Source: Mobula hypostoma (Eukaryota). From it: 64,000 nt of DNA. Position 1 is the stretch's first letter. Each line of letters begins with the position of its first letter. The notes under the pieces are model-generated. The model worked only from the letters and a program-made list of their open reading frames with translations. It did no database searches and was not told where the DNA came from. The stretch lies in assembly GCF_963921235.1 (NCBI RefSeq), contig NC_086097.1, positions 8,494,001 to 8,558,000 on the forward strand, in the 5' to 3' direction. The position numbers and the translations under genes are program-made. Below, piece after piece: positions 4,293-30,775 of the stretch.

Positions 4293-5520
4293 GGTTTCAA
4301 ATGCCACTGAGATGGTCAGAGAGTGAGAAATCCAGAACTTTCTAACTAGTTTCTTAGTAATTTCATCCAGATGTGCAGGTTTATCAGTCATTTAGTACAT
4401 CTTTGTACTTAGCGTCTGTTGAAAACAAAAGCAAATGGATATCTGAAAACACACATATAAAAGAGATTCCATGCCAGATACAAAGAAGCATTGCAGAGCT
4501 GTCCTGCCATTTTATAGTCTACTTACTAGTGATGAGAAATTGATGCAATTTATTGGTAATTCTGCATTGTCAAATGGGTAGTTTTGAAAAGTGAATTATG
4601 AGTTACTTGAAGCCTTGTCGTCAATCCACTCCAATCTTTGAATGTGGCTGTTCACTCAATCATTGAAGCTCGTGAACCTTGGATGAACTTCATCCTTCAT
4701 AGCATGGTGTTCATTAGGGAAACCTGAAAATATTCACGACTAAGCTGCCCTTCTGTTCTTCTTATGTGGAGCCGTGCCTGTAACAGTTTTGAGTTAACCT
4801 GTGCTTCAGGCAAATAATAGAAATGGAAAGTTACCTCAACAGTGAAATATTACCATTGATCTTCTGGATCTCAGTCTTATTTTTCACCCTATAATCAAAA
4901 TATTTGTGGTTATGTGAAGGATTAGGCTGAACTGAAGCACAGAATTTCTCAGTCTCGAGCCATCTCAGAGGCATTACAGATTTGTAGCATCCAGCAGTAG
5001 ATGCACGTGAATGTCTGCAGAAGCAAAGTTCAAAGTGCACTGTCCGGAGATATACTGACTGGTAGGTTAATTGGGCATTGGAGATTGTCCTGATTAAATT
5101 GGAGGATTGCGGGGTGGTGTGCTTGAAAGGGTCGAAAGGCCACAAGGGCCCATTCTGTGCTGTATCTCGATAAACAGATAAATGTATTATTTATTGAGAT
5201 AGAACACAGATTAGGTCCTTCTGGCCCTTTGAGCCATGCTGCCCAGCAACCCCTAACTTAACCCTCACTATAGATAATGACCGATTAGCCTACTAACTAC
5301 TCTGGACTGTGGGAGCAAACACATGCGATCACAAGGAGAATGTACAGACTCCTTACGGATGACAAATGAACTGAACTTTGAACTCTGACACCCCGAGCTG
5401 CAATAGGGTCGCAATAACTGCTCTGATACTGCGCAGCCCACTTATTATGAAAAGTATGTATACCAAATACAACCTTGAGATTCATCTTCTGGAAGGCAGC
5501 CACAAAACAAAGAAACATAA

Positions 5521-8500
5521 TAGAATGTTTCAGAAAGGACAGGGAGGGAGGCAAAAGAGGTGGGGGCGTGGCACCGTTGATCAGAGATAGTGTCATGTCT
5601 GCAGAAAAGGTGGACGCCATGGAGGGATTGTCTACGGAGTCTCTGTGGTTGGAGGTTAGGACCAGGAAGGGCTTAATAACTTTACTGGGTGTTTTTTATA
5701 GGCTGTCCAATAGTAACAGGGATATCGAGGAGCAGACAGGGAAACAGATCCTGGAAAGGTGTAATAATAAGTGCGACGTCAGCGCGCGGCCACTTTGGTG
5801 GTGAATATCTGTTATCTGTCAAGTAGGGGACCGTGCACAGTTCTGATTTGATGGAGACGGATGTGAGAGTATGGAGGAACATCTGGAAAACTTCTGAAAT
5901 GCCTGCTTCGCTGCCGCTGCTACTGTGTGGTAACCGGAATCTCCGGAGCAGAAGGCCCCAAAATCCTCGGCTTTGCATGTTTCAGCGGCCGGGGTGAGGT
6001 CGAAGGCACTCGGCAGAGGATGGCGCTCGGGAAGCTGTATCGGAGAGGCTGGTCGGAAGCTCGAAGTTTTCAGACGGATGGACTCAGTGTCGGCTGAGGG
6101 CAGCTGCTTCCGAGGTATCGGCAAGTTGACGGTGCCTGGAGGTTAATAGCAGGGAGTTTCTCCCTTTTGCCGCCTGTTATTGGGGACTCAGGAGTCAATC
6201 AACTCGGGACTTTGAGACTGTTTTTTACTGTGCCCATGGTCTGTTCTTTATCAAATTATGGTATTGCTTTGCACTGCTGTAACTATATGTTATAATTATG
6301 TGGTTCTGTCAGTGTTAGTCTTTGGTCTGTCCTGTTTTCTGTGATATCTCTCTGGAGAAACATTGTATCATTTCTTAATGCATGTATGCATTTCTAAATG
6401 ACAATAAAAGAGGACTGTGTGTTCTCATAATCTAATCTAAAAATATAACAGAGTTGTCGTGATGTGAGATTTTAATTTCCCAAATATCGATTGGCAACTC
6501 CCTAGAGCAAAGGGTTTACATGCGGTGAAGTTTGTTAGGTGTGTTCAAGAAGGTTTCTTGACACATTATGTAGATCTGCCTACAAGAGGAGAGGCTGTAC
6601 TTGATTTGGTATTGGAAAATGAACCTGGCCAGGTGTCAGAGATTTCAGTAGGAGAGCATTTTGGAGATAGTGGTCATAATTCTATCCCCTTTACAATAGC
6701 ATTGGAGAGAGATAGGAACAGACCAGTAAGAAAAACGTTTAATTGGAGTAAGGGGAATTATGAGGCTATCAGGTGGGAGATTGGAAGCTTAAATTGGAAA
6801 CAGATGTTCTCAGGGAAAAGTATGGAAGAAATGTGGCAATTGTTCAGGGAGGAATAAGGGGATATTTGTGTGGAGTTCTGCATAGGTACGTTCCACTGAG
6901 ACAGGGAAGTTATGGTAGGGTACAGGAACCGTGGTGTACAAAGGCTGTAATAAATCTAGTCAAGAAGAAAAGAAAAGCTTACAAAAGGTTCAGAGAACTA
7001 GGTAATGTTCGAGATCTAGAAGATTATAAGGCTAATAGGAAGGAGCTTAAGAAGGAAATTAGGAAAGCCAGAAGGGGCCATGAGAAGGCCTTGGCGGACA
7101 GGATTAAGGAAAACCCCAAGGCATTCTACAAGTATGTGAAGAGCAAGAGGATAAGACGTGAAAGAATAGAACCTATCAAGTGTGACAGTGGGAAAGTATG
7201 TATGGAACCAAAGGAAATAGCAAAGGTACTTAATGAATACTTTACTTCAGTATTCACTATGGAAAAGGATCTTGGTGATTGTAGTGATGACTTGCAGCAG
7301 ACTGAAAAGCTTGAGCATGTAGATATTAAGAAAGAGGAAGTGCTGGAGCTTTTGGAAAGCATCAAGTTGGATAAGTCACTGGGACTGGATAAAATGTACC
7401 CCAGTCTACTGTGGGAGGTGAGGGAGGAGATTGCTATGCCTCTGGCGATGATCTTTGCTTCATCAATGGGGACGGGAGAGGTTCGGGAGGATTGGAGGGT
7501 TACGGATATTGTTCCTTTATTCAAGAAAGGGAGTAGAGATAGCCCAGGAAATTATAGAACAGTGAGTCTTACCTCAGTGGTTGGCAAGTTGATGGAGGAA
7601 ATCCTGAGAGGCAGGATTTATGAACATTTGAAGAGGTATAATATGATTAGGAGTAGTCAGTATGGCTTTGTCAAGGGCAGGTCGTGCCTTACGAGCCTGA
7701 TTGAATTTTTTGAGGATGTGACTAAACACACTGATGAAGGAAGAGCAGTAAATGTAGTGTTCATGGATTTCAGCAAGGCATTTGATAAGGTACCCCACAT
7801 AAGGCTTATTGAGAAAGTAGGGAGGCATAGGATCCAAGGGTATATTGCTTTGTGGATTACTTTTCATGATTTTTATAAATGACCTGGATGAGGAAGTGGA
7901 GGGATGGGTTAGTAAGTTTTGTTGATGACACAAAGGTTGGAGGTGTTGTGGATAGTGTGGAGGGCTGTCAGAGGTTACAGCGGGACACAGATAGCATACA
8001 AAACTGGGCTGAGAAGTGGCAGATGGAGTTCATCCCAGATAAGTGTGAAGTGGTTCATTTTGGTAGGTCAAATATGATTTCAGAATATAGTATTAATAGT
8101 AAAACTCTTGACAGTGTGCAGGATCAAAGGGATCTTGGGGTCTGAGTCCATAGGATGCTCAAAGCAGCTGTGCAGGTTGACTCTGTTGCAGCTATATAGG
8201 ACCCTGGTCAGACCCCACTTGGAGTACTGTGCTCAGTTCTGGTCACCTCACTACAGGAAGGATGCGGAAACCATAGAAAGGGTGCAGAGGAGATTTAGAA
8301 GGATGTTGCCTGGATTGGGGAGCATGCCTTATGAGAATAGGTTGAGTGAACTAGGCTTTTTCTCATTGGAGCGACGGAGGATGAGAGGTGATCTGTTAGA
8401 GGTGTATAAGATGATGAGAGGCATTGATTGTGTGGATAGTCAGAGGCTTTTCCCCAGGGCTGAAATGGCTAGCACGAAAGCATACTTTTAAATTGCTTGG

Positions 8501-17075: not shown

Positions 17076-17596
17076 GCTGCAGTGTCAACTGCTTACCCAC
17101 CAAAAAGAGATAACCTTTTCTCCATTTAGGTAATGGACTATTGTTCCTTATGTCAAAATGCATTATCATATAATAACCAACACTGTCATTTTTTTGCCCA
17201 TTCTCCCAATCTGTTTAAGTCCTGCTGCAATCACATCGCTTCCACAGCTCTACCCACCCCTCCACCTATCTTCATATCATCCACAAACTTTGCCACAAAA
17301 CTATCAGTTCCAATATCTAAATCACTGACAAACAACATGAAAAGAAGTGGTCCCAATAATGACCCTTGAGGAACATCACTAATCACAGGCAGTCAACCAG
17401 AAAAGCCCTCCTTTTTTCCCACTTACTGTCTCCTGCCTGTCAGCCATTCTGCTATCCCTGCCAGTATATTTCTTGTAAAGCCATGGGATTTTATCTTTAA
17501 ACAACAGGAATTCTGCAGATGCTGGAAATTCAAGCAACACACATCAAAGTTGCTGGTGAACGCAGCAGGCCAGGCAGCATCTCTAGGAAGAGGTAC

Positions 17597-17632
17597 AGTC
17601 GACGTTTCAGGCCGAGACCCTTCGTCAGGACT
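17597..17632 (-). ncRNA. Minimal type I hammerhead ribozyme (mirror copy)
   Basis: Exact reverse complement of 17678-17713. Confidence 0.8.
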
Positions 17633-17677
17633 AACTGAAGGAAGAGTTAGTAACTCTTATTAACTCTTCCTTCAGTT

Positions 17678-17713
17678 AGTCCTGACGAAGGGTCTCGGCC
17701 TGAAACGTCGACT
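17678..17713 (+). ncRNA. Minimal type I hammerhead ribozyme
   Basis: agtc-CTGACGA-agg(gtctcgg)cct-GAAA-cGTC-gact: stem I agtc/gact, intact core, near-absent palindromic stem III as known for Penelope hammerheads. Confidence 0.8.
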
Positions 17714-18364
17714 GTACCTCTTCCTAGAGATGCTGCCTGGCCTGCTGCGTTCACCAGCAACTTTGATGTGGATTTTATCTTTACCTCGTTCAGCAGCCGC
17801 TTGAGTGGCACCTTATCAAATGCCTTCTGAAAATCCAAGTAAGCGGATTTTATCCAAGTAAAAGAAGATGCACCTTATCACTGCCTCTCCTTTGTCCACC
17901 CTGCTTGTTACGTCCTCGAAGAACTTTAACAGATTTGTCAGGTAAGATTTCCCTTAACAGGGACTGTTAAGAATGCTGACTTTGAATTTTTATCATTAGT
18001 CTCCAAGTACTTCAAAACCTCATCCTTAACATTCCTTCATCTCTGTCTGCCCATACAATTGTACACAGGTAACGAAGGATTCTTCATTGCTGTTTCTCTA
18101 ACAATTTATTTTGACCAGTCAGGGTTGGTAGCCCTGAGCTCAATCCCAAACCTGGAGGACCAGTGGACCACTCAGTCTGTCCTCTGCCCTTTGACCTGTT
18201 TGGCATGGGTGACCCTACCAGGAGTCAAAGCACAAGGCCCTTACACCAGCCAGCCTAGCTCTCAATGTCAATGAGGTACTTAAGCCTCCAAACCCTACGA
18301 CAAGATTGTGGTCCTCTTGTTTGAATGTTAAGAAAACTTAAACTTGAATGTGTGATCCTTTTGC

Positions 18365-19751
18365 AACTAGCCAGTTAGTTTAACATCTGTAGTTGGGAAG
18401 ACGCTTGAAGCTATCATAAAAGAAGAAATAGCAGCTGGAAAGATATCAATCTATCAGGCAGATGCAGCAAGGATTCAGCAAGGGTAGGTCCTGTTTGACA
18501 AACTTCCTGGAGTTCTTTGAGGATATAACGAGCGCAGTGGGTAGAGGGGAACAGATGGATGTTACTTGGATTTCCAGAAGGTGTTCAATAAGGTGCCACA
18601 CAAAAGAGTTACCCATCAGATAAGGATGCATCGAGTTGGGGGTGATTTGTATTAACATGGTTAGAGGATTGGTTAACCAATAAAAAGCAGAGAATTGGGT
18701 TACATGGGTGTTACTCTGGTTGGCAATCAGTGGTGTGCCCCAGGGGTTAGTGCTGGGTCCACAACTGTTCATGATATGCATTATCAATCTGGAAGAGGGG
18801 TCTGAGTGTAGTGTATCTAGGTTTGCTGCTGACACTAAATAGAGTGGAAAAGCAAATTGTGCAGAGTATGCAGAGAGTCTGCAGAGAGGTATAAACAGGG
18901 TAAGTGAGTGGGCAAGGGTCTGGCAGATAGAGTACAATGTTGATAAATGTGAGGTCATCCATTTTGGAAGGGAAAATAGAAGACCAGGTTATGATTTAAA
19001 TGGTAAAAGATTACAACATGCCACTGAGAAGAAGGACTAGGGAGTGTTTGTGCATGAGTTGCAAAAAGTTGGTTTGCAGGTACAGCAGGCTATCATGAAG
19101 GCAAATGGAATGTTAGTCTTTATTGCTAGAGGGATTGCGTTTAAGAGTAGGGAGGTTATGCTGCAACTGTATAGGGTACTGCTGAGGCCACATCTGGAGT
19201 ACTACATGCATTTCTGGTCTCCTTACTTGAGGAAGGATATACTGGCTGTCGAGGCACTGCAGAGGATGTTCACCAGGTTGATTCCATAGATGAGAGGGTT
19301 AGACTATGAGGAGAGATTGAGTCACCTGCGATTGTACTCACCGGAATTCCAAAGAATGAGAGAGATCTTATAGAAACATAAAATTATAAAAGGGATAGAT
19401 AAGATAAAGGCAGCAAAGTTGTTTTCACTGGTAGGTGAGACTAGAAATAGGGGACATAGCTCAAGATTCAGTGAAGTAGATTTGGGATGGAGATGAGGAG
19501 GAGCTGCTTTTCCCAGAGAATGGTGAATCTGTGGAATTTTCTGCCTAATAAAGCAGTGCAGGCTACCTCAGTAAGTATAATTAAGACAAGGTTGGTTAAA
19601 TTTTTGCATAGTAGGAGAATTCAGGATTATGGGGAAAAGGCAGGTAGGTGGAGATGAGTCCATGGCCAGATCAACCATGATCTTATTGGATGGCAGAGCA
19701 GGCTCGATGGGCCGGATGGTCTACTCCTGCTCTCGTTTCTTATGTTCTTAT
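18365..19751 (+). mobile_element. CR1 LINE, 5'-truncated, decayed
   Basis: QGFSKGRSCLTNFLEFFED, LQLYRVLLRPHLEY; ttcttatg tail. Confidence 0.9.
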
Positions 19752-20116: not shown

Positions 20117-21526
20117 TGCCAAAGTGATCTGGTTGTGTACTGGGCACCTAACTGCTAGATTAATGACAAAATTTAACGAGAACAAGGTAAGGGACATTAA
20201 AGCTGTGAAACATGGGTCATAGCTCACAGTCTGTGGATTTCTCTAACAGATGTTTGTGTGAGGTTAACATTGTACTTTCAAAGAAAATATCCCTAATTTC
20301 AAAACAGTGTGTCTTGAACTGAATACTCATGTCATGCAGAATAAAGGAATGGAATGAAGAAAAAAGTTACAATGAAAATGCTCAGATTTCTTGAAAGCAA
20401 ATCCACGTATTTCCTTCAATATAATGAGCATACCTCATGAAATCTGATGATCTAAGACTTCTGCTTTTCTTAAACTCAGCATTTGATTTGTTTTTTTTTT
20501 GCTTTCTTTGGATTCAAACTATACATTTTGCAACACAGCCATAACTAACATCCTTTATCCTCTGTGTGCGGGTGTATGTTAAAACAGATTTCTGTTTTTA
20601 GTACTCCAACATCAATACTACTTTTACTGCCACTGTCTATTTAGCCTTTTCAGATCAGTAAAAAAAAGTTCAACTTATAAAATCTCAATATCCTCTTGGG
20701 CTTAGAGTGGAGGATGAAGGTTTTATGAACGTATAAATTGGCTGGACTCTGTTTTATTGAATTGGGGTCCTTCAGGTACTCTTGTTTAACTTGTGGAAAA
20801 TAATCAATAATTAGATATCAAGTTAAAATTCAGGCTAGAAGCTATACTCATGCATATTCTTCCAGTCACCTACTGGAAGGAATTTTCTAGTGAACAATTT
20901 TTCTTCAATCACACATCCCCACCCCTTATAACTTCTTTCAGTTAATCTCTGAAAGACTGATGGGGCTTGTCAGCCATGGTAAGCAGCTCATCTAGGAGAA
21001 GGAAAAGTTCCTGGGAGTTCACATCATGGATGACGTCACCTGGTCCCTTAATATCACCTCCCTGAACAAGAAGACTCAACAGCACCTGCACTTCCCAAGA
21101 AGATTGTAGCGAGTGTAACACGTTGTAAAGTTCACCGCTAAGGATAATGTAATGGTTTCTATGTAAAGTTCCACTGTTAAGGTAATGGTTTCTCTGGAGC
21201 AGCAATGTTTGGGTTATGACTAGAGATAACGGGACTTTGGAATAGAAACATAGTAAATAGGTACAGGAGTAGGCCATTCGGCCCTTCGAGCCTGCACCGC
21301 CATTTATTATGATCATGGCTGATCATCCAACTCAGAACCCTGCACCAGCCTTCCCTCCATACCCCCTGATCCCCGTAGCCACAAGGGCCATATCTAACTC
21401 CCTCTTAAATATAGCCAAATGAACTGGCCTCAACTGTTTCCTGTGGCAGAGAATTCCACAGAATCACCAATCTCTGTGTGAAGAAGTTTTTCCTAATCTC
21501 AGTCCTAAAAGGCTTCCGCTTTATCC

Positions 21527-24364
21527 TCAAACTGTGACCCTCGTTCTGGACTTCCCCAACATCGGGAACAATCTTCCTGTATTTAACCCGTCCAATCCCT
21601 TTAGGATTTTATACGTTTCAATCAGATCCCCCCTCAATCTTCTAAATTCCAACGAGTACAAGCCTAGTTCATCCAGTCTTTCTTCATAGGAAAGTCCTGC
21701 CATCCCAGGAATCAATCTGGTGAACCTTCTTTGTACTCCCTCTATGGCAAGGATGTCTTTCCTCAGATTAGGGGACCAAAACTGCACACAATACTCCAGG
21801 TGTGGTCTCACCAAGGCCTTGTACAACTGCAGTAGTACCTCCCTGCTCCTGTACTCAAATCCTCTCGCTATAAATGCCAGCATACCATTCACCTTTTTCA
21901 TCGCCTGCTATACCTGCATGCCCACTTTCAATGACTGGTGTATAATGACACCCAGGTCTCGTTGCACCTCCTCTTTTCTTAATCGGCCACCATTCAGATA
22001 ATAATCTGTTTTCCTATTTTTGCCACCAAAGTGGATAACTTCACATTTATCCACATTAAATTGCATCTGCCATGAATTTGCCCACTCACCCAACCTATCC
22101 AAGTCACCCTGCATCCTCTTAGCATCCTCCTCACAGCTAACACTGTCGCCCAGCTTCGTGTCATCCGCAAACTTGGAGATGCTGCATTTAATTCCCTCAT
22201 CCAAGTCATTAATATATATTGTAAACAACTGGGGTCCCAGCACTGAGACTTGCGGTACCCCACTAGTCACTGCCTGCCATTCTGAAAAGATCCCGTTTAT
22301 TCCCACTCTTTGCTTCCTGTTTGCTAACCAATTCTCTATCCACATCAATACCTTACCCCCAATACAGTGTGCTTTAAGTTTGCACACTAATCTCCTGTGT
22401 GGGACCTTGACAAAAGCCTTTTGAAAATCCAAATATACCACATCCACTGGTTCTCCCCTATCCACCCTACTAGTTACATCCTCAAAAAATTCTATGAGAT
22501 TCATCAGACATTGTTTTCCTTTCACAAATCCATGCTGACTTTGTCCGATGATTTCACCGCTTTCCAAATGTGCTGTTATCATATCTTTGATAACTGACTC
22601 CAGCAGTTTCCCCACCACCGACGTTAGGCTAACCGGTCTATAATTCCCCAGTTTCTCTCTTCCTCCTTTTTTAAAAAGTGGAGTTACATTAGCCACCCTC
22701 CAATCCTCAGGAACTAGTCCAGAATCTAACGAGTTTTGAAAAATTATCACTAATGCATCCACTATTTCTTGGGCTACTTCCTTAAGCACTCTAGGATGCA
22801 GACCATCTGGCCCTGGGGATTTATCTGCCTTTAATCCCTTCAATTTACCTAACACCACTTCCCTACTAACATGTATTTCGCTCAGTTCCTCCATTTCACT
22901 GGACCCTCTGTCCCTTACTATTTCTGGAAGATTATTTATGTCCTCCTTAGTGAAGACAGAACCAAAGTAATTATTCAATTGGTCTGCCATGTCCTTGCTC
23001 CCCATAATCAATTCACCTGTTTCTGTCTGTAGGGGACCTACATTTGTCTTTACCAGTCTTTTCCTTTTTACATATCTATAAAAGCTTTTACAGTCAGTTT
23101 TTATGTTCCCTGCCAGTTTTCTCTCATAATCTTTTTTCCCCTTCCTAATTAAGCCCTTTGTCCTCCTCTGCTGAACTCTGAATTTCTCCCAGTCCTCAGG
23201 TGAGCCACTTTTTCTGGCTAATTTGTATGCTTCTTCTTTGGAATTGATACTATCCCTAATTTCTCTTGTCAGCCACGGGTGCACTACCTTCCTTGATTTA
23301 TTCTTTTGCCAAACTGGGATGAACAATTGTTGTAGTTCATCCATGCAACCTTTAAATGCCTGCCATTGCATATCCACCGTCAATCCTTTAAGTGTCATTT
23401 GCCAGTCTATCTTAGCTAATTCACGTCTCATACCTTCAAAGTTACCCCTCTTTAAGTTCAGAACCTTTGTTTCTGAATTAACTATGTCACTCTCCATCTT
23501 AATGAAGAATTCCACCATATTATGGTCACTCTTACCCAAGGGGCCTCTCACCACAAGATTGCTAATTAACCCTTCCTCATTGCTCAAAACCCAGTCTAGA
23601 ATAGCCTGCTGTCTAGTTGGTTCCTCGACATGTTGGTTCAAAAAACCATCCCACATACATTCCAAGAAATCCTCTCCCTCAGCACCTTTACCAATTTGGT
23701 TCACCCAGTCTACATGTAGATTGAAGTCACCCATTATAACTGCTGTTCCTTTATTGCACACATTTCTAATCTCCTGTTTAATACCATCGCCGACCTCACT
23801 ACTACTGTTAGGTGGCCTGTACACAACTCCCAACAGCGTCTTCTGCCCCTTAGTGCTATGCAGCTCTACCCATATCGATTCCACATCTTCCCGGCTTATG
23901 TCCTTCCTTTCTATTGCGTTAATCTCATCTTTAACCAGCAACGCCACCCCACCTCCCCTTCCTTCATGTCTATCCCTCCTGAATATTGAATATCCCTGAA
24001 CGTTGAGCTCCCATCCTTGGTCACCCTGGAGCCATGTCTCTGTGATCCCAACTATATCATAATCATTAATAATAATCTGCACTTTCAATTCATCCACCTT
24101 GTTACGAATGCTCCTTGCATTGACACACAAAGCCTTCAGGCGCTCTTTTACAACTCTCTTAGCCCTTATACAATTATGTTGAAAAGTGGCCCTTTTTGAT
24201 GCTTGCCCTGGATTTGTCAGCCTGCCACTTTTACTTTTCTCCTTACTACTTTTTGCTTCTACCCTCACTTTACACCCCTCTGTCTCTCTGCACTGGTTCC
24301 CATCCCCCTGTTGTGAACTAACCTCCTCTCGCCTAGCCTCTTTAATTTGATTCCCACCCCTCAA
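21527..24364 (-). pseudogene. CR1 ORF2: APE endonuclease + reverse transcriptase, near intact
   Basis: 818-aa open frame (NARSIRNK, GITETW, MGDFN, SDH, NYRPVSLTS, FADD), one in-frame stop at about 21908, a further 124 aa, then a frameshift near 21540. Confidence 0.95.
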
Positions 24365-24369
24365 CCATT

Positions 24370-24480
24370 CTAGTTTAAAGTCACCTCAGTAGCCCTCGCT
24401 AATCTCCCTGCCAGGATATTGGTCCCCCTAGGATTCAAGTGTAACCCGTCCTTTTTGTACAGGTCACGCCTGCGCCAAAA
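24370..24480 (-). pseudogene. CR1 ORF1 C-terminus (SGNH esterase-like)
   Basis: Hand translation FWRRRDLYKKDGLHLNPRGTNILAGRLARATEVTLN*, containing the DGLH motif. Confidence 0.85.
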
Positions 24481-26721
24481 GATTTAATAAGATCCCCCCT
24501 CAATCTTCTAAATTCCAACGAGTATAAGCCTAGTCGATCCAGTCTTTCATCATATGACAGTCCTGCCATCCCAGGAATCCAATGGGATTATCCAATGGGA
24601 GAAATGTTGTTCTTTCTTGCGTGTCTGGGAGCCGGGTTTCTCGCGGTCTTTCATCGGGGAGCGACAGAGAGAGAGGACGCGAATGAAGAGAGTCGGAAAA
24701 CCACCGGAGTGGACTGGGAGCGAGGGTCCGAGGGCCGGCGACACTTGGAGGAGGTCAATGGTTGATGAATAGCCGTATCAGCGAGCTCCAACATGCACTT
24801 TTGATTTTTTTCCTTAAAATAGGCCTTTTTTCTTTTTATTTTCTTCACTAACCCCATATCCAGATTAAGATTTATAAAATTCAATCATTTAATCACCTAT
24901 GGTGTACTGTCGGATATTTTGCAGTGCGGATTTGTAACTGGACAACACGTCATGCAGCATCCACACAAGCGAGATTTCTCAGTTTGGCGGGGCCAGGAGT
25001 TGTTTTCCCCTGGATGAACACGTGCTGGCCGAGCCTGAGGGTTACACAAGCAAGGCTCCCCAACCCCGCCACCCCCCCCCATCTTAACTGTATTTTACAG
25101 GAGCACTGTTGAGAGCGTCCAGACAAGTTACATCTCTGACTGGTATGGGAGCAGTCGAGCATTGGACCAGAAGTACCAACAAAGGACTGCGAGAACAGCA
25201 GAAAGGATCATAGGGTCTCCTTACCATCCATCGGGGACATTTATCAGATGCGCTGAGTACACTAGGCCCTTAGTATTATTATGGATTCCACCCATCATTC
25301 CAGCATCCTCAGACTTTCTACTGTCAGGCAGGAAACTACCATGCATAAAAACAAGAAACAGTTCCCCCCCCGCCCCCCGAGGCTGTCAAGTTTCTGAACT
25401 CCCCGCTGCATTGTATTCAAAGTGTCACTGGATAATTTGTTCCATTTCTTCCAATTTTTAATACCAATGCACTTTAGTTTGTTATTTATGTTTGTTGTTT
25501 CATCTGTAGATTTTATCCTTACCTTTATAGGTTATCATGTGTTATGTGTGTTATGTGTCCTACTGTGTTTTACACCCTGGTTCAAAGAAATGCCTCGTTT
25601 CTATATATATTATATGTTTATGTATGTTATATACATCTATATAGTTAAATGACAATAAACTTGACTTAACATGAAAATTCTGATTACAAACCTCCGCAGC
25701 CTTGTGGCTATACACTCTCTTGGGGAAGACTTTGGGGGTAAGCCCCAAAGAGAGATCTAAATCTGGAGTCCCTATTTTGAGTTCAGTTCCAACTGTCAAC
25801 TCCTGTGATGCTGCTGGTGCCAAACTGTTTTGGTCTCTGCTGTTACCTTGGATTCATCAGATGCGTGAGGAAGGGGAGCCGGCTATATGGACAACAGCTT
25901 GCTCCTCTATTGTACTGCCCAGGTTTACATATCTAGACAGCTAGGACACAACATCCATGGTTGACTCTGACCCAAGGAGGCTGCCTCCTCCTCAGTTAAA
26001 TACTTATTTGCTCAACTATTTGTTAAATGTTATCAATTATTATCTTGAATATGCACCTTGCAATAAGAATGGTATCACTGACATAATAGATAAAAACAAC
26101 CAAACTGATTTTATTTACAAATACAATTAATTTAAAATGCATGTCAGAAGTGAGCCAACCTGAATGCCTAGCACATGGGTTGTGCAGACAGCAACCAGTG
26201 GAGACCTCTGACCTAGGCTAGTCTTTCAATTTGTCCCCAAGTGTAGCCTATCTTCTAAAATCCTTCCTTTCCCAAGGATAAGGTCTTTGGAGCTTCTGCT
26301 GTTGTGTCTGTAGCTCTGGATTTTTACAAGATGGGTTTGGTAACCTCGTACCCAGCCCTCTTCTAATTCCAGCCAGGCTTGGACCATCCTTGGTAGAGTT
26401 ATTGATGGAGTGAGGTAACATGATGATTAGTGAAGTGTCCCTGTGTCCAGGTGATAAGAAAGGAAAGGTTAATTTGTGTTGCACTGATATTCATTGTAGA
26501 AGTGTTGCAAGACACTCAGATCTAGAAATTTATAGTCCTATGGCAGAGAAACAGGCCAATAAACTCGTAAAAGCCATTTACCTGAATCGTATACTAATCC
26601 CAAATCCCATTCTATTCTTCCCATGTTCCCACTAATCCCCTTAGATTCAGGCCAGTCATTTACAAACTTGGGACAACTTCCAACCTGCATGACTTTGAAA
26701 TGAGGGTGGAAACCAAAGTAC

Positions 26722-27409: not shown

Positions 27410-29212
27410 GTCACGTCAAGTCAAGTCACTTTTTATTGTTATTTCGACCATAACTGCTGGGACAGTACACAGTAAAAATGAGACAATGTTTTTCAGGACC
27501 ATGGTGCTACATGAAACAATACAAAAACTACACTGAACTACGTAAAACAACACAAAACTACACTAGCCTACAGACCTACCCAGGACTGCATAAGGTGCAC
27601 AAAACAGTTCAGGCATTACAATAAATAATAAACAAGACAATAGGCACAGTAGAGGGCAGTAGGTTGGTGTCAGTCCAGGCTCTGGGTATTGAGGAGTCTG
27701 ATGGCTTGGGGGAAGAAACTGTTACATAGTCTGGTCGTGAGAGCCCGAATGCTTCGGTGCCTTTTGCCAGATGGCAGGAGGGAGAAGAGTTTGTATGAGG
27801 GGTGCGTGTGGTCCTTCATAATGCTGTTCGCTTTACAGATGCAGTGTGTGGTGTAAATGTCTGTAATGGCGGGAAGAGAGACCCTGATGATCTTCTCAGC
27901 TGACCTCACTATCCACTGCAGGGTCTTGCGATCCGAGATGGTGCAATTTCCGAACCAGGCAGTGATGCAGCTGCTCAGGATGCTCTCAATACAACCTCTG
28001 TAGAATGTGGTGAGGATGGGGGGAGGGAGATGGACTTTTCTCAGCCTTCACAGAAAGTAGAGATGTGGCTGGGCTTTCTTTGCTATGGAGCTGGTGTTGA
28101 GGGACCAGGTGAGATTCTCCACCAGGTGAACAACAAGAAATTTGGTGCTCTTAATGATCTCTATGGAGGAGTCATCGATGTTCAGCAGAGAGTGGTCGCT
28201 CTGTGTCGTCCTGAAGTCAACAACCATCTCTATTGTTTTTTTCACATTCAGAGACAGGCTGTTGGTTCTGCACCAGTCCATTAGCTGCTGCACCTCCTCT
28301 CTGTATGCTGACTCATAGTTCTTGCTGATGAGACCCACCACAGTCCTGTCATCGGCGAACTCGATGATGTGGTTCAAGCTGTGTGTTGCAGCACAGTCGT
28401 GGGTCAGCAGAGTGAACAGCAGTGGACTGAGCACACAGCCCTGGGGGGCCCCCATGCTCAGTGTGATGGTGTTGGAGATGCTGCTTCCAATCCAGACTGA
28501 CTGAGGTCTCCCAGTCAGGAAGTCTAGGATCCATTTGCAGGGGGAGGTGTTCAGGCCCAGTAGGCTCAGCTTACCAATCAGTTTCTGAGGAGTGATTATG
28601 TTGAATGCTGAACTGAAGTCTATGAACAGCATTTTAATGGATGCGTCTTTTTTGTCCAGGTGGGTTAGGGCCAGGTGGAGGGTAATAGCAATGGCGTCGT
28701 CTGTTGAACGGTTGGGACGGTACGCGAACTGCAGGGGATCCAGTGAAGGGGACAGCAGGGCCTTGATGTGCCTCATGACGAGCCTCTTGAAACACTTCAT
28801 GATGATGGATGTGAGTGCGACGGGACGGTAGTCGTTGAGGCAGGACACTGAAGACTTCTTCGGCACGGGGACGATGGTGGCGGACTTGAAGCACGTTGGA
28901 ACGACGGCGCTGCTCAGGGAGATGTTGAAGAAGTCAGTGAGAATTTCAGCTAGCTGGTCTGCACATCCTCTAAGCACTCTGCCAGGAATATTGTCTGGTC
29001 CAGCAGCCTTCCATGGGTTGACCCTGCACAGGGTTCTCCTCATATCGGCCACGGTAAGACACAGCACCTGGTCATTTGGAGGAGGGGTGGTCTTCCTCGC
29101 CGGCACGTCATTTTCAGCCTCAAAACAAGTGTAGAAATTGCACAACGCATCTGGGAGGGAGGCATCACCAGCACAGGCAGGTGGTGCTGTCTTGTAATTG
29201 GTGATGTCCCTG
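27410..29212 (-). mobile_element. Rex1/Babar LINE, 5'-truncated RT
   Basis: ORF 28048-29295 ([46 protein letters not shown]); ORF 27670-27909 (NSFFPQAIRLLN); (cttga)n tail. Confidence 0.93.
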
Positions 29213-30489: not shown

Positions 30490-30775
30490 CATATAAAAAC
30501 AGACGTAGGTTGTATGAAAGATGAGATTATTAAAAGTTAATGTGGGTTCCTTACGTGCGGAGACAACAAAAATTACAATTGGGAATATGGAAGTGGTAGA
30601 GGCATTAAACAAACAATTAGAATCTGTCTTCACAGCAGAAAACAGAACAAACATTCTAGCAACAGTGGGAAACCAACGGTCTAGGGAGAATGAAGAAAAG
30701 AGAAATTATTATTAATAAAGACATCACATTAAAAAAATTCATATGGCTATAAGCTGATAAATCCCTGAATGTCTT
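30490..30775 (+). mobile_element. CR1 ORF2 internal fragment
   Basis: KVNVGSLRAETTKITIGNMEVVEALNKQLESVFT, similar to the 21908 ORF. Confidence 0.75.

Follow-up and report, generated by a model that had tools for sequence, protein, structure and literature searches.

A TTTAAAC heptamer conserved at the ORF1/ORF2 junction of esterase-type CR1 elements as a probable programmed −1 frameshift site

The junction of the window copy and its family

We analyzed a 64,000-nucleotide stretch of the Mobula hypostoma genome (RefSeq assembly GCF_963921235.1, contig NC_086097.1, positions 8,494,001 to 8,558,000; called the window here), whose minus strand carries one copy of a long interspersed nuclear element (LINE). 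The element appears to be a CR1-clade LINE with a type IV (esterase) first open reading frame (ORF1). The placement in CR1 and not in L2 is indirect and comes from bird and snake homologues of ORF1 together with sections of a recent survey (PMC13343379). The minus-strand stretch across the junction reads GGC TAC TGA GGT GAC TTT AAA CTA GAA TGG TTG AGG GGT GGG AAT, and within it ORF1 ends as ACT GAG GTG ACT TTA AAC TAG. The original prediction, made from the letters of the window, had placed TTTAAAC at the end of ORF1 with ORF2 in the −1 frame, and both are confirmed (24379–24373). Read one base back, the sequence continues as TTT AAA CTA GAA TGG TTG AGG GGT GGG AAT, which is the frame of an 818-codon ORF (21908–24364, TTG start). 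As predicted, the apparent initiator methionine of this ORF is a TTG. The first ATG of the frame is codon 215 counted from the heptamer, at VIMGDFN, inside the endonuclease domain. The frame given for an 818-residue ORF2 was correct, but the reading is cut by an in-frame stop (21910–21908) and resumes to 21527; the ORFs 21908–24364 and 21527–21901 lie in one and the same frame. ORF2 is made of a linker of about 82 codons, then the APE endonuclease, then the reverse transcriptase (RT). Pfam recognizes Exo_endo_phos (E 2.8e-12; ORF2 residues 98–286, nt 24088–23522) and RVT_1 (E 3.1e-28; residues 571–790, nt 22669–22010). Upstream, the −1 frame is shut by the TGA at 24388–24386, so a −1 shift can reach ORF2 only inside the approximately 14 nt where the two frames overlap. 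The features are collected in Table 1.

Table 1. Features of the element copy in the window, in window positions
Feature	Position	Strand	Basis
Putative slippery heptamer U_UUA_AAC, ORF1 phase (AC)T TTA AAC	24373..24379	-	sequence
ORF1 stop TAG, immediately 3' of the heptamer	24370..24372	-	sequence
TGA closing the ORF2 (−1) frame, two codons 5' of the heptamer	24386..24388	-	sequence
ORF1 3' remnant, last 37 codons of the SGNH-esterase ORF1	24373..24483	-	tblastn, ORF1 residues 274–310, 97% identity
Proximal G-rich motif GGTTGAGGGGTGGGAATC; family form GGTTGGGGGGTGGGAATC	24349..24366	-	sequence, near-identical copies
Second motif copy CAGGGGGATGGGAACC, about 70 nt past the heptamer	24295..24310	-	sequence
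ORF2 frame, slip site (FKLEWLRGGNQ...) to premature stop	21911..24379	-	ORF list, translation
Premature in-frame stop breaking ORF2	21908..21910	-	ORF list
ORF2 C-terminal part, 124 codons + stop	21527..21901	-	ORF list
3' untranslated region (UTR) and tail, ending ...CTATTTACTATGTTTCTATT, without poly-A	21241..21526	-	end point inferred from sequence only

The window copy is dead, with its ORF1 cut to 37 codons and a nonsense codon in its ORF2. It is 5'-truncated near 24483, and other copies match the junction query only from query position 19. The genome searched is one assembly of 3.48 Gb in 200 contigs, and the junction DNA gave at least 1,220 first-look candidates in it. The best 30 places (the window and 29 others) are 99–100% identical, and the heptamer, the stop and the upstream TGA are kept in all 30. 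No ATG is found within the first 100 ORF2 codons in 29 of these 30 copies of what we call family A; the exception, L021, has a 1-nt deletion.

The esterase ORF1 named in the original prediction is present in other copies, at a full length of 310 amino acids (for example in L026), and only its end lies in the window. A CxxC...CxxC (zinc-knuckle-like) motif is followed by a coiled-coil-like heptad stretch and then by the SGNH esterase. Against Pfam, the full ORF1 matches Lipase_GDSL_2 (E 4.9e-16) and also OSK. Its closest named homologue among the matches listed is from Mobula hypostoma, at 90% identity. The arrangement is that of the type IV ORF1 of vertebrate CR1 and matches ‘CR1 subgroup 7, IVB’ in the sections of PMC4120745 that treat it. 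Type IV ORF1 of vertebrate CR1 is also described in parts of PMC13343379, where chondrichthyan L2 elements are given as lacking an ORF1. In a protein search of the genome, 129 of 130 scored ORF1 places were free of stops, most of them open over 341 codons as in a verified copy of family A; their assignment to family A follows from the 341-codon number only. Since nearly all scored places lack a stop, the family is young. The element tail ends in ...CTATTTACTATGTTTCTATT without poly-A and may be comparable to the CR1 octamer repeat.

Pieces of CR1 ORF1 also occur inside gene models, namely hydroxyacid oxidase 2 (Hypanus), 40S ribosomal protein S24 (Pristis) and transmembrane protein 204 (Mobula birostris). 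A near-identical ORF1 is filed under Pseudomonas aeruginosa and another under a frog parasite (the set comprises P0121, P0026, P0070/P0071, P0020 and P0080). The misplaced records and gene-model fusions are likely to be annotation or contamination artefacts.

Conservation of the heptamer in subfamilies and homologues

Further subfamilies were found with ORF1 proteins of other species as queries, and pieces of 350–400 nt were cut at the ORF1 ends. The 40 copies examined divide among six subfamilies (A 1, B 13, C 10, D 1, E 6, F 9). Compared with the family-A ORF1, the ORF1 proxy protein of B has 61% identity and that of C 40%. Of the 40 copies, 36 have an intact heptamer and the others read TTTAAAT, TTTGAAC (twice) and TTCAAAC; all 20 further copies of family D have an intact heptamer as well. 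A stop (TAA, TAG, once TGA) follows the heptamer directly in 37 of the 40. The representative junctions are given in Table 2.

Table 2. ORF1/ORF2 junctions of the six subfamilies, in the ORF1 phase
Family	ORF1 end and stop	Continuation
A	GTG ACT TTA AAC TAG	AATGGTTGGGGGGTGGGAATC
B	GAG GGT TTA AAC TAA	TTTGGCAGGGGGATGGGAACC
C	AGG GCT TTA AAC TAA	ATAGTAGGGGGGTGGGTTC
D	GAA GAT TTA AAC TAA	TGTGGCAGGGGGATGGGAAC
E	GAG GCT TTA AAC TAG	ATTTGCAGGGGGATGGGAACC
F	GAG GGT/GAT TTA AAC TAA	TTTGCAAGGGGGATGGGACCC

In all six families ORF2 lies in the −1 frame and is open from the slip site (FKL...) to the APE motif LYLNARSIRNK. Each has a linker of 45–82 residues, rich in K, E, S and R. The linkers are unalignable between families except for their first ten residues, FKL-x-(W/L/C/S)-x-G-(D/G/V)-G-(N/T/S). 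The −1 frame is shut 1–8 codons 5' of the heptamer in the representatives of A (by TGA) and of B, C, E and F (by TAG). No ATG precedes APE in the representatives of E and F. A start codon that overlaps or adjoins the stop is found in family D only, and in none of A, B, C, E and F. Closer relatives of the Xenopus-type or P0048-type ORF1 are not found in the ray genome, where the best matches are 40–43% and 46% identical, respectively. Families A and D have closely similar ORF2s past an insert of about 54 nt and different ORF1 ends, which suggests exchange of ORF1 or remodelling of the junction.

The conservation is seated in the bases and not only in the peptide. When the six junctions are aligned over 220 nt, 33 columns do not vary. 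Nine of these, TTTAAACTA, form the longest uninterrupted block, and GGGG and TGGG come next. Pairwise identity averages 0.60 in the last 60 nt of ORF1, 0.95 in the heptamer plus stop, 0.74 in the spacer plus G-rich motif, and 0.44 downstream. All six families end ORF1 with TTA for Leu and AAC for Asn. The codon before the heptamer (ACT, GGT, GCT, GAT, GCT and GAT from A to F) always ends in T, although the residue changes (T, G, A, D, A, D). Elsewhere in ORF1, invariant Leu residues 12 and 20 codons upstream vary in codon (CTG/CTA/CTT and TTG/CTG), and a conserved upstream Asn switches between AAT and AAC. In family A, TTA makes up 17% of Leu codons, AAC 25–32% of Asn codons, and NNT 22–32% of the four-fold codons counted. 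By our own count, about 24 of 16,384 heptamers qualify as canonical X_XXY_YYZ. With Y = A or T, such a heptamer stands in phase at one of 308 in-phase positions of the full ORF1, the terminal TTTAAAC itself, and at one of 948 in ORF2. Because the synonymous sites of the last codons are frozen while neighboring sites vary, selection on the ORF1 protein (ORF1p) fails to explain the frozen bases. Coding for ORF2 fails as well, since the ORF2 frame is shut just upstream in the representatives of A, B, C, E and F. Conservation at synonymous sites and in phase, which the original prediction had named as a check, is found in six diverged CR1 subfamilies, with the stop adjacent.

The C-termini of ORF1 homologues extend the comparison beyond the ray genome. 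LN is the ending of 62 of 120 listed homologues, from rays, skate, sharks, Callorhinchus, Latimeria, Xenopus and Calypte (hummingbird); a snake homologue ends in RRALN. The residue before LN is compatible with an NNU codon in 60 of the 62, against a background of 16% incompatible residues in the ten upstream positions. An alignment of 14 sequences, with identities as low as 29%, shows no change at L309 or N310. Teleost and bichir L2-like esterase ORF1s do not have the LN ending. Two Hypanus gene models run from ORF1 into ORF2 as ...GG-FKL-DVQGAG... and ...EG-FKL-NLQGAG.... With FKL in the −1 frame and LN in the zero frame, TTTAAAC is fixed in a seventh (stingray) family. A search for fused proteins gave these two Hypanus models only and no lineage with a natural in-frame ORF1–ORF2.

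Among 1.84 billion cluster representatives searched with a profile, 150 proteins were listed, 84 of them with the DGxHx block and a C-terminus 20–45 residues behind it. Among these 84 matches listed, 56 end in Asn; the terminal dipeptides are LN in 42, GN in 9 (8 of them QGN), EN in 2, SN in 2, KN in 1 and others in 28. LN, (Q)GN and KN are the coding of U_UUA_AAC, (CA)G_GGA_AAC and A_AAA_AAC, respectively. Sister-group esterase ORF1s from metagenome contigs end in Gln-Gly-Asn, others in SKN, QEN or LEN (P0180, P0187, P0192, P0199, P0205, P0208, P0236, P0248), and in an alignment of 16 sequences the last residue is always Asn. Judged from these protein termini, the QGN lineages may use G_GGA_AAC. 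No QGN-type ORF1 was found in the ray genome; the best match, 33–39% identical, belongs to the same CR1 families, and a narrowed QGN alignment used as a profile gave no relatives there. The sole locus for the QGN protein P0248 (L127) was discarded, as its translation is not a homologue.

The G-rich element and other repeats of the window

A linear motif, GGGGGRTGGG (GGGGGAUGGGAAC as RNA), lies 9–10 nt 3' of the heptamer in all six subfamilies. In family A the core of the proximal motif, GGGGGGTGGG, begins 10 nt past the heptamer. Compared with family D, family A has about 54 extra alignment columns, so that the motif is present twice, as a diverged copy at the canonical distance and an exact copy about 70 nt away. 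The extra nucleotides follow right after the junction (L079 against L076, alignment A1, columns 108–161). The G-rich blocks described in the original prediction are present downstream, but the window differs from its family at position 24361, where it has A (TTGAGGGG) and 27 of 30 near-identical copies have G. Between families the motif changes from GAT to GGT to GTG, with GGG as the only Gly codon in B, D, E and F. The G-run is kept and the peptide is not, which argues for a role of the motif at the RNA level. The 60–160 nt that follow the heptamer are 66–78% purine. Pairing of the motif with the 3' end of the element was also considered and rejected; across about 630 windows the best duplex (−20.7 kcal/mol) departs from the mean by approximately 3.2 standard deviations, no more than the lowest of so many values should.

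Other repeats surround the element. Directly 5' of the truncated copy lies a 94-nt piece (24486–24579, minus strand) that matches, at 92.6% identity and in the same orientation, the ORF2 3' region of that copy itself (21620–21713). It may be what is left of an earlier insertion, or a chimera formed by template switching at the 5' junction. ORF2 remnants of older, diverged CR1/L2-like type are found at 2311–2940 (−), 5529–8178 (+), 17195–19082 (both strands), 28186–29010 (−) and 30524–30697 (+). They show 27–72% amino-acid identity to the young copy, and none contains an ORF1/ORF2 junction. Within one of them, at 5773–6100 (+), lies a repeat some 330 nt long, for which the genome gave 11,376 first-look candidates, with 92–94% identity among 40 scored copies; it is probably similar to a short interspersed nuclear element. 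The piece 5300–6100, used as a query for an older CR1 family, matched this unrelated high-copy repeat instead.

Frameshifting and other routes to ORF2

The conserved anatomy suggests that CR1 LINEs with an esterase ORF1 have a programmed −1 site in the U_UUA_AAC at the final two sense codons of that ORF, and that this site yields an ORF1p–ORF2p fusion; we consider this reading likely. Most ribosomes would read Leu-Asn and stop at the adjacent stop codon, giving ORF1p. A minority would slip back by one base, with tRNA-Leu moving from UUA to UUU and tRNA-Asn from AAC to AAA. The slipped ribosomes would then read CUA, pass through the basic/acidic linker of 45–82 residues and enter APE–RT. The predicted product is a fusion analogous to Gag-Pol, with the family junction ...TLN-LEWLGGGN... 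and the predicted junction peptide ...ATEVTLNLEWLGGGNQIK. Such a fusion would set a low ratio of ORF2 to ORF1 and would tie ORF2p to the assembly of ORF1p. The stimulators are probably the G-rich GGGGGRUGGG and the adjacent stop; the former would act as a linear element, bound by a protein or by the ribosome, and not as a stem-loop.

Several points weigh against this reading. All the DNA evidence comes from one genome, and the subfamilies are related by descent, so that the six are not independent trials; the cross-vertebrate and QGN arguments are drawn from protein termini only. The stop is strictly adjacent to the heptamer, an arrangement that frameshifting does not need and that a termination-coupled mechanism does. 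The −1 frame is open for at least 32 codons 5' of the heptamer in L076 (family D) and for at least 24 in L097 (a family E copy), and tight upstream closure is thus not universal. Family B has ATGs in the linker at about codons 39 and 42, and Hypanus ORF2 models have linker ATGs too. In family D, 19 of 20 further copies and L076 read UAAUG, whose AUG is in frame with ORF2. The absence of an in-frame ATG ahead of the endonuclease, as originally proposed, accordingly stands for family A (29 of 30 copies) and fails for B and D. Near-cognate codons, AUU in B and F and UUG in E and A, lie at most three codons from the stop. As to RNA structure, no stable fold of the sort expected 5–9 nt past a canonical −1 heptamer is predicted downstream (z-score +0.27 over 158 nt; pseudoknots lie outside the model), in keeping with the original prediction, which had assigned no stimulatory structure. 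Folds of the six families over 60–140 nt have z-scores from −2.3 to +2.2, of which only that of F is negative and five are no better than shuffles. A stem-loop was rejected on this ground as the universal stimulator, and so was a two-tier G-quadruplex, which is predicted only in A, B and D.

Some of these points belong equally to termination–reinitiation, the alternative that survives best. Here a ribosome that has terminated would restart in the −1 frame at a nearby AUG or near-cognate codon, ORF2p would be a separate protein, and the conserved bases and the G-rich motif would be signals for retention or positioning. The stop directly at the junction, the UAAUG of family D and the near-cognate codons of A, B, E and F all fit. 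The G-rich motif also includes UGGGA, which is the core of motif 1 of the calicivirus termination upstream ribosome-binding site (TURBS). A TURBS sits upstream of the stop, however, and in the A–F junctions UGGGA is only downstream of it. There is no common start codon either; where D has its AUG, the other five families have AUU, AUU, GAU, GAA and AAU. Reinitiation leaves unexplained the canonical in-phase X_XXY_YYZ, the −1 position of ORF2 in all families, and the QGN and KN endings, which fit other slippery heptamers. It is a known route for SART1 and L1, as passages of PMC3708506, PMC3894237 and PMC2881922 describe. On balance we regard it as unlikely for these elements, and the comparison of the subfamilies favors, as the original prediction did, a −1 fusion over reinitiation.

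Initiation of ORF2 on its own, at an internal AUG or near-cognate codon reached by leaky scanning or internal entry, would require that LN-stop be kept for a function of the ORF1p C-terminus or for another non-decoding role of the RNA. The linker ATGs of family B and of the Hypanus models and the invariance of the terminal Asn at the protein level speak for it. However, APE is not preceded by any ATG in families A, E and F, and the last three codons do not vary at their synonymous sites, unlike the codons around them. The teleost L2-like esterase ORF1s lack LN, so the esterase fold has no need of it. We consider this explanation very improbable.

A spliced subgenomic RNA, in which a donor near the element start is joined to a YAG|G at the G-rich motif and ORF1 is removed, is the least probable explanation, close to negligible in our view, since an in-frame join fits only A and perhaps F, the phases are wrong in B and C, and the conserved TTTAAAC and stop would be unexplained. 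For family A the in-frame product would be M-S-G-D-G-N..., from ATG AGT|GTGAGG spliced to CAG|GGG GAT GGG; the GTGAGG stands right after ORF1 codon 2 (L026:681–700), in phase with the distal CAG|GGG. CAG, AAG or TAG also precedes the motif in B, C, D, E and F, and GGTAAGT-type donor-like sites lie 35–60 nt 5' of the ORF1 ATG in B, C and E. These 5' UTR donors would, however, leave ORF2 without an in-frame AUG; moreover, the polypyrimidine tract is poor, and the proximal motif copy of family A is preceded by TTG and not by AG. In four sequencing runs, none on record as RNA, whose short Logan contigs are of uncertain kind and mostly 90–95% alike, 15 of 49 joints were shown; none of them links the ORF1 start to the junction, and no indel in the heptamer is listed. 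These contigs speak neither for nor against splicing. The 5' UTR donors were located in L101 and L106 (B), L105 (C) and L102 (E), and the B donor is followed by a pyrimidine tract and a TAG about 45 nt on.

The proposed −1 frameshift has parallels in several known systems. The −1 site between ORF1a and ORF1b of coronaviruses and arteriviruses is U_UUA_AAC with a pseudoknot. The CR1 junction shares with the coronavirus site the identical heptamer, the same logic of phase and a −1 downstream ORF with the polymerase. It differs in having no predicted stem-loop, an adjacent zero-frame stop, a linear G-rich element and a cellular LINE as host. The label ‘coronavirus-type’ of the original prediction hence holds for the heptamer and for nothing beyond it. 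In the ‘shifty stop’ of luteoviruses and dianthoviruses the heptamer is followed immediately by a zero-frame stop, and the arterivirus nsp2TF site has a linear, protein-bound C-rich motif about 11 nt downstream. The CR1 cassette is similar to these in its adjacent stop and in a linear, unstructured 3' element at about 10 nt. Unlike that of nsp2TF, the CR1 element is G-rich and has no known binding partner, and no long-range pairing is supported.

The general rules of programmed −1 frameshifting are reviewed in PMC5009743, according to which 28 of 51 animal long terminal repeat (LTR) elements have pol in the −1 frame, many with classical heptamers. As in retroviral and LTR Gag-Pol, an upstream structural or accessory protein would be fused at low frequency to the RT protein via X_XXY_YYZ; CR1 is a non-LTR element, however, and in place of a Gag it has an ORF1p that combines an SGNH esterase with a zinc-knuckle-like motif and a coiled coil. 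For bicistronic LINE RNAs, UAAUG coupling in SART1 and AUG-independent translation of ORF2 in human L1 are described in parts of PMC3708506, PMC3894237 and PMC2881922. CR1 resembles these in having the ORF1 stop at the ORF2 start, and in family D even UAAUG; it departs from them in that five of its six families lack the AUG and have a canonical slippery heptamer instead, with a predicted fusion product.

Reviews call ORF2 translation from a bicistronic RNA unclear and discuss reinitiation, internal ribosome entry sites and 2A peptides. The word ‘frameshift’ is absent from two reviews of LINE translation, PMC3894237 and PMC2881922. Among non-LTR elements, the corresponding part of the recoding review PMC5009743 mentions only HeT-A, TART and mammalian LINE. 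Frameshift, overlap and start codon are likewise unmentioned in the passages on elements in the 2026 survey of the vertebrate CR1 group (PMC13343379). Within the sections of the literature searched there is no report of frameshifting at the CR1 ORF1/ORF2 junction; the 1997 chicken and turtle CR1 papers, which lie outside the search, may describe the junction.

A wider reading can be offered tentatively. In most non-mammalian vertebrates CR1 is the dominant LINE, and from a time before cartilaginous and bony vertebrates diverged it might have made its endonuclease–RT as a Gag-Pol-like fusion by means of a cassette of X_XXA_AAC, a stop, about 10 nt and a linear G-rich element. The heptamer would differ by lineage, being U_UUA_AAC in the LN and G_GGA_AAC in the QGN lineages. 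A 3' stimulator of this type, G-rich and unstructured, would be new; its binding partner would be ORF1p, the ribosome or a G-run protein of the host, and ORF2 output would become tunable.

If the site functions as proposed, it would provide a second and mechanistically simple answer to the question of how LINE ORF2 is translated, and it would do so for a vertebrate-wide clade. The predicted fusion of ORF1p and ORF2p would bear on cis-preference and on the assembly of the ribonucleoprotein particle. An AUG should then not be sought for ORF2 when these elements are annotated. Heptamer, stop and G-rich motif form a compact cassette, and through CR1 the transcriptomes of vertebrates would contain a cellular −1 frameshift signal in many repeated copies.

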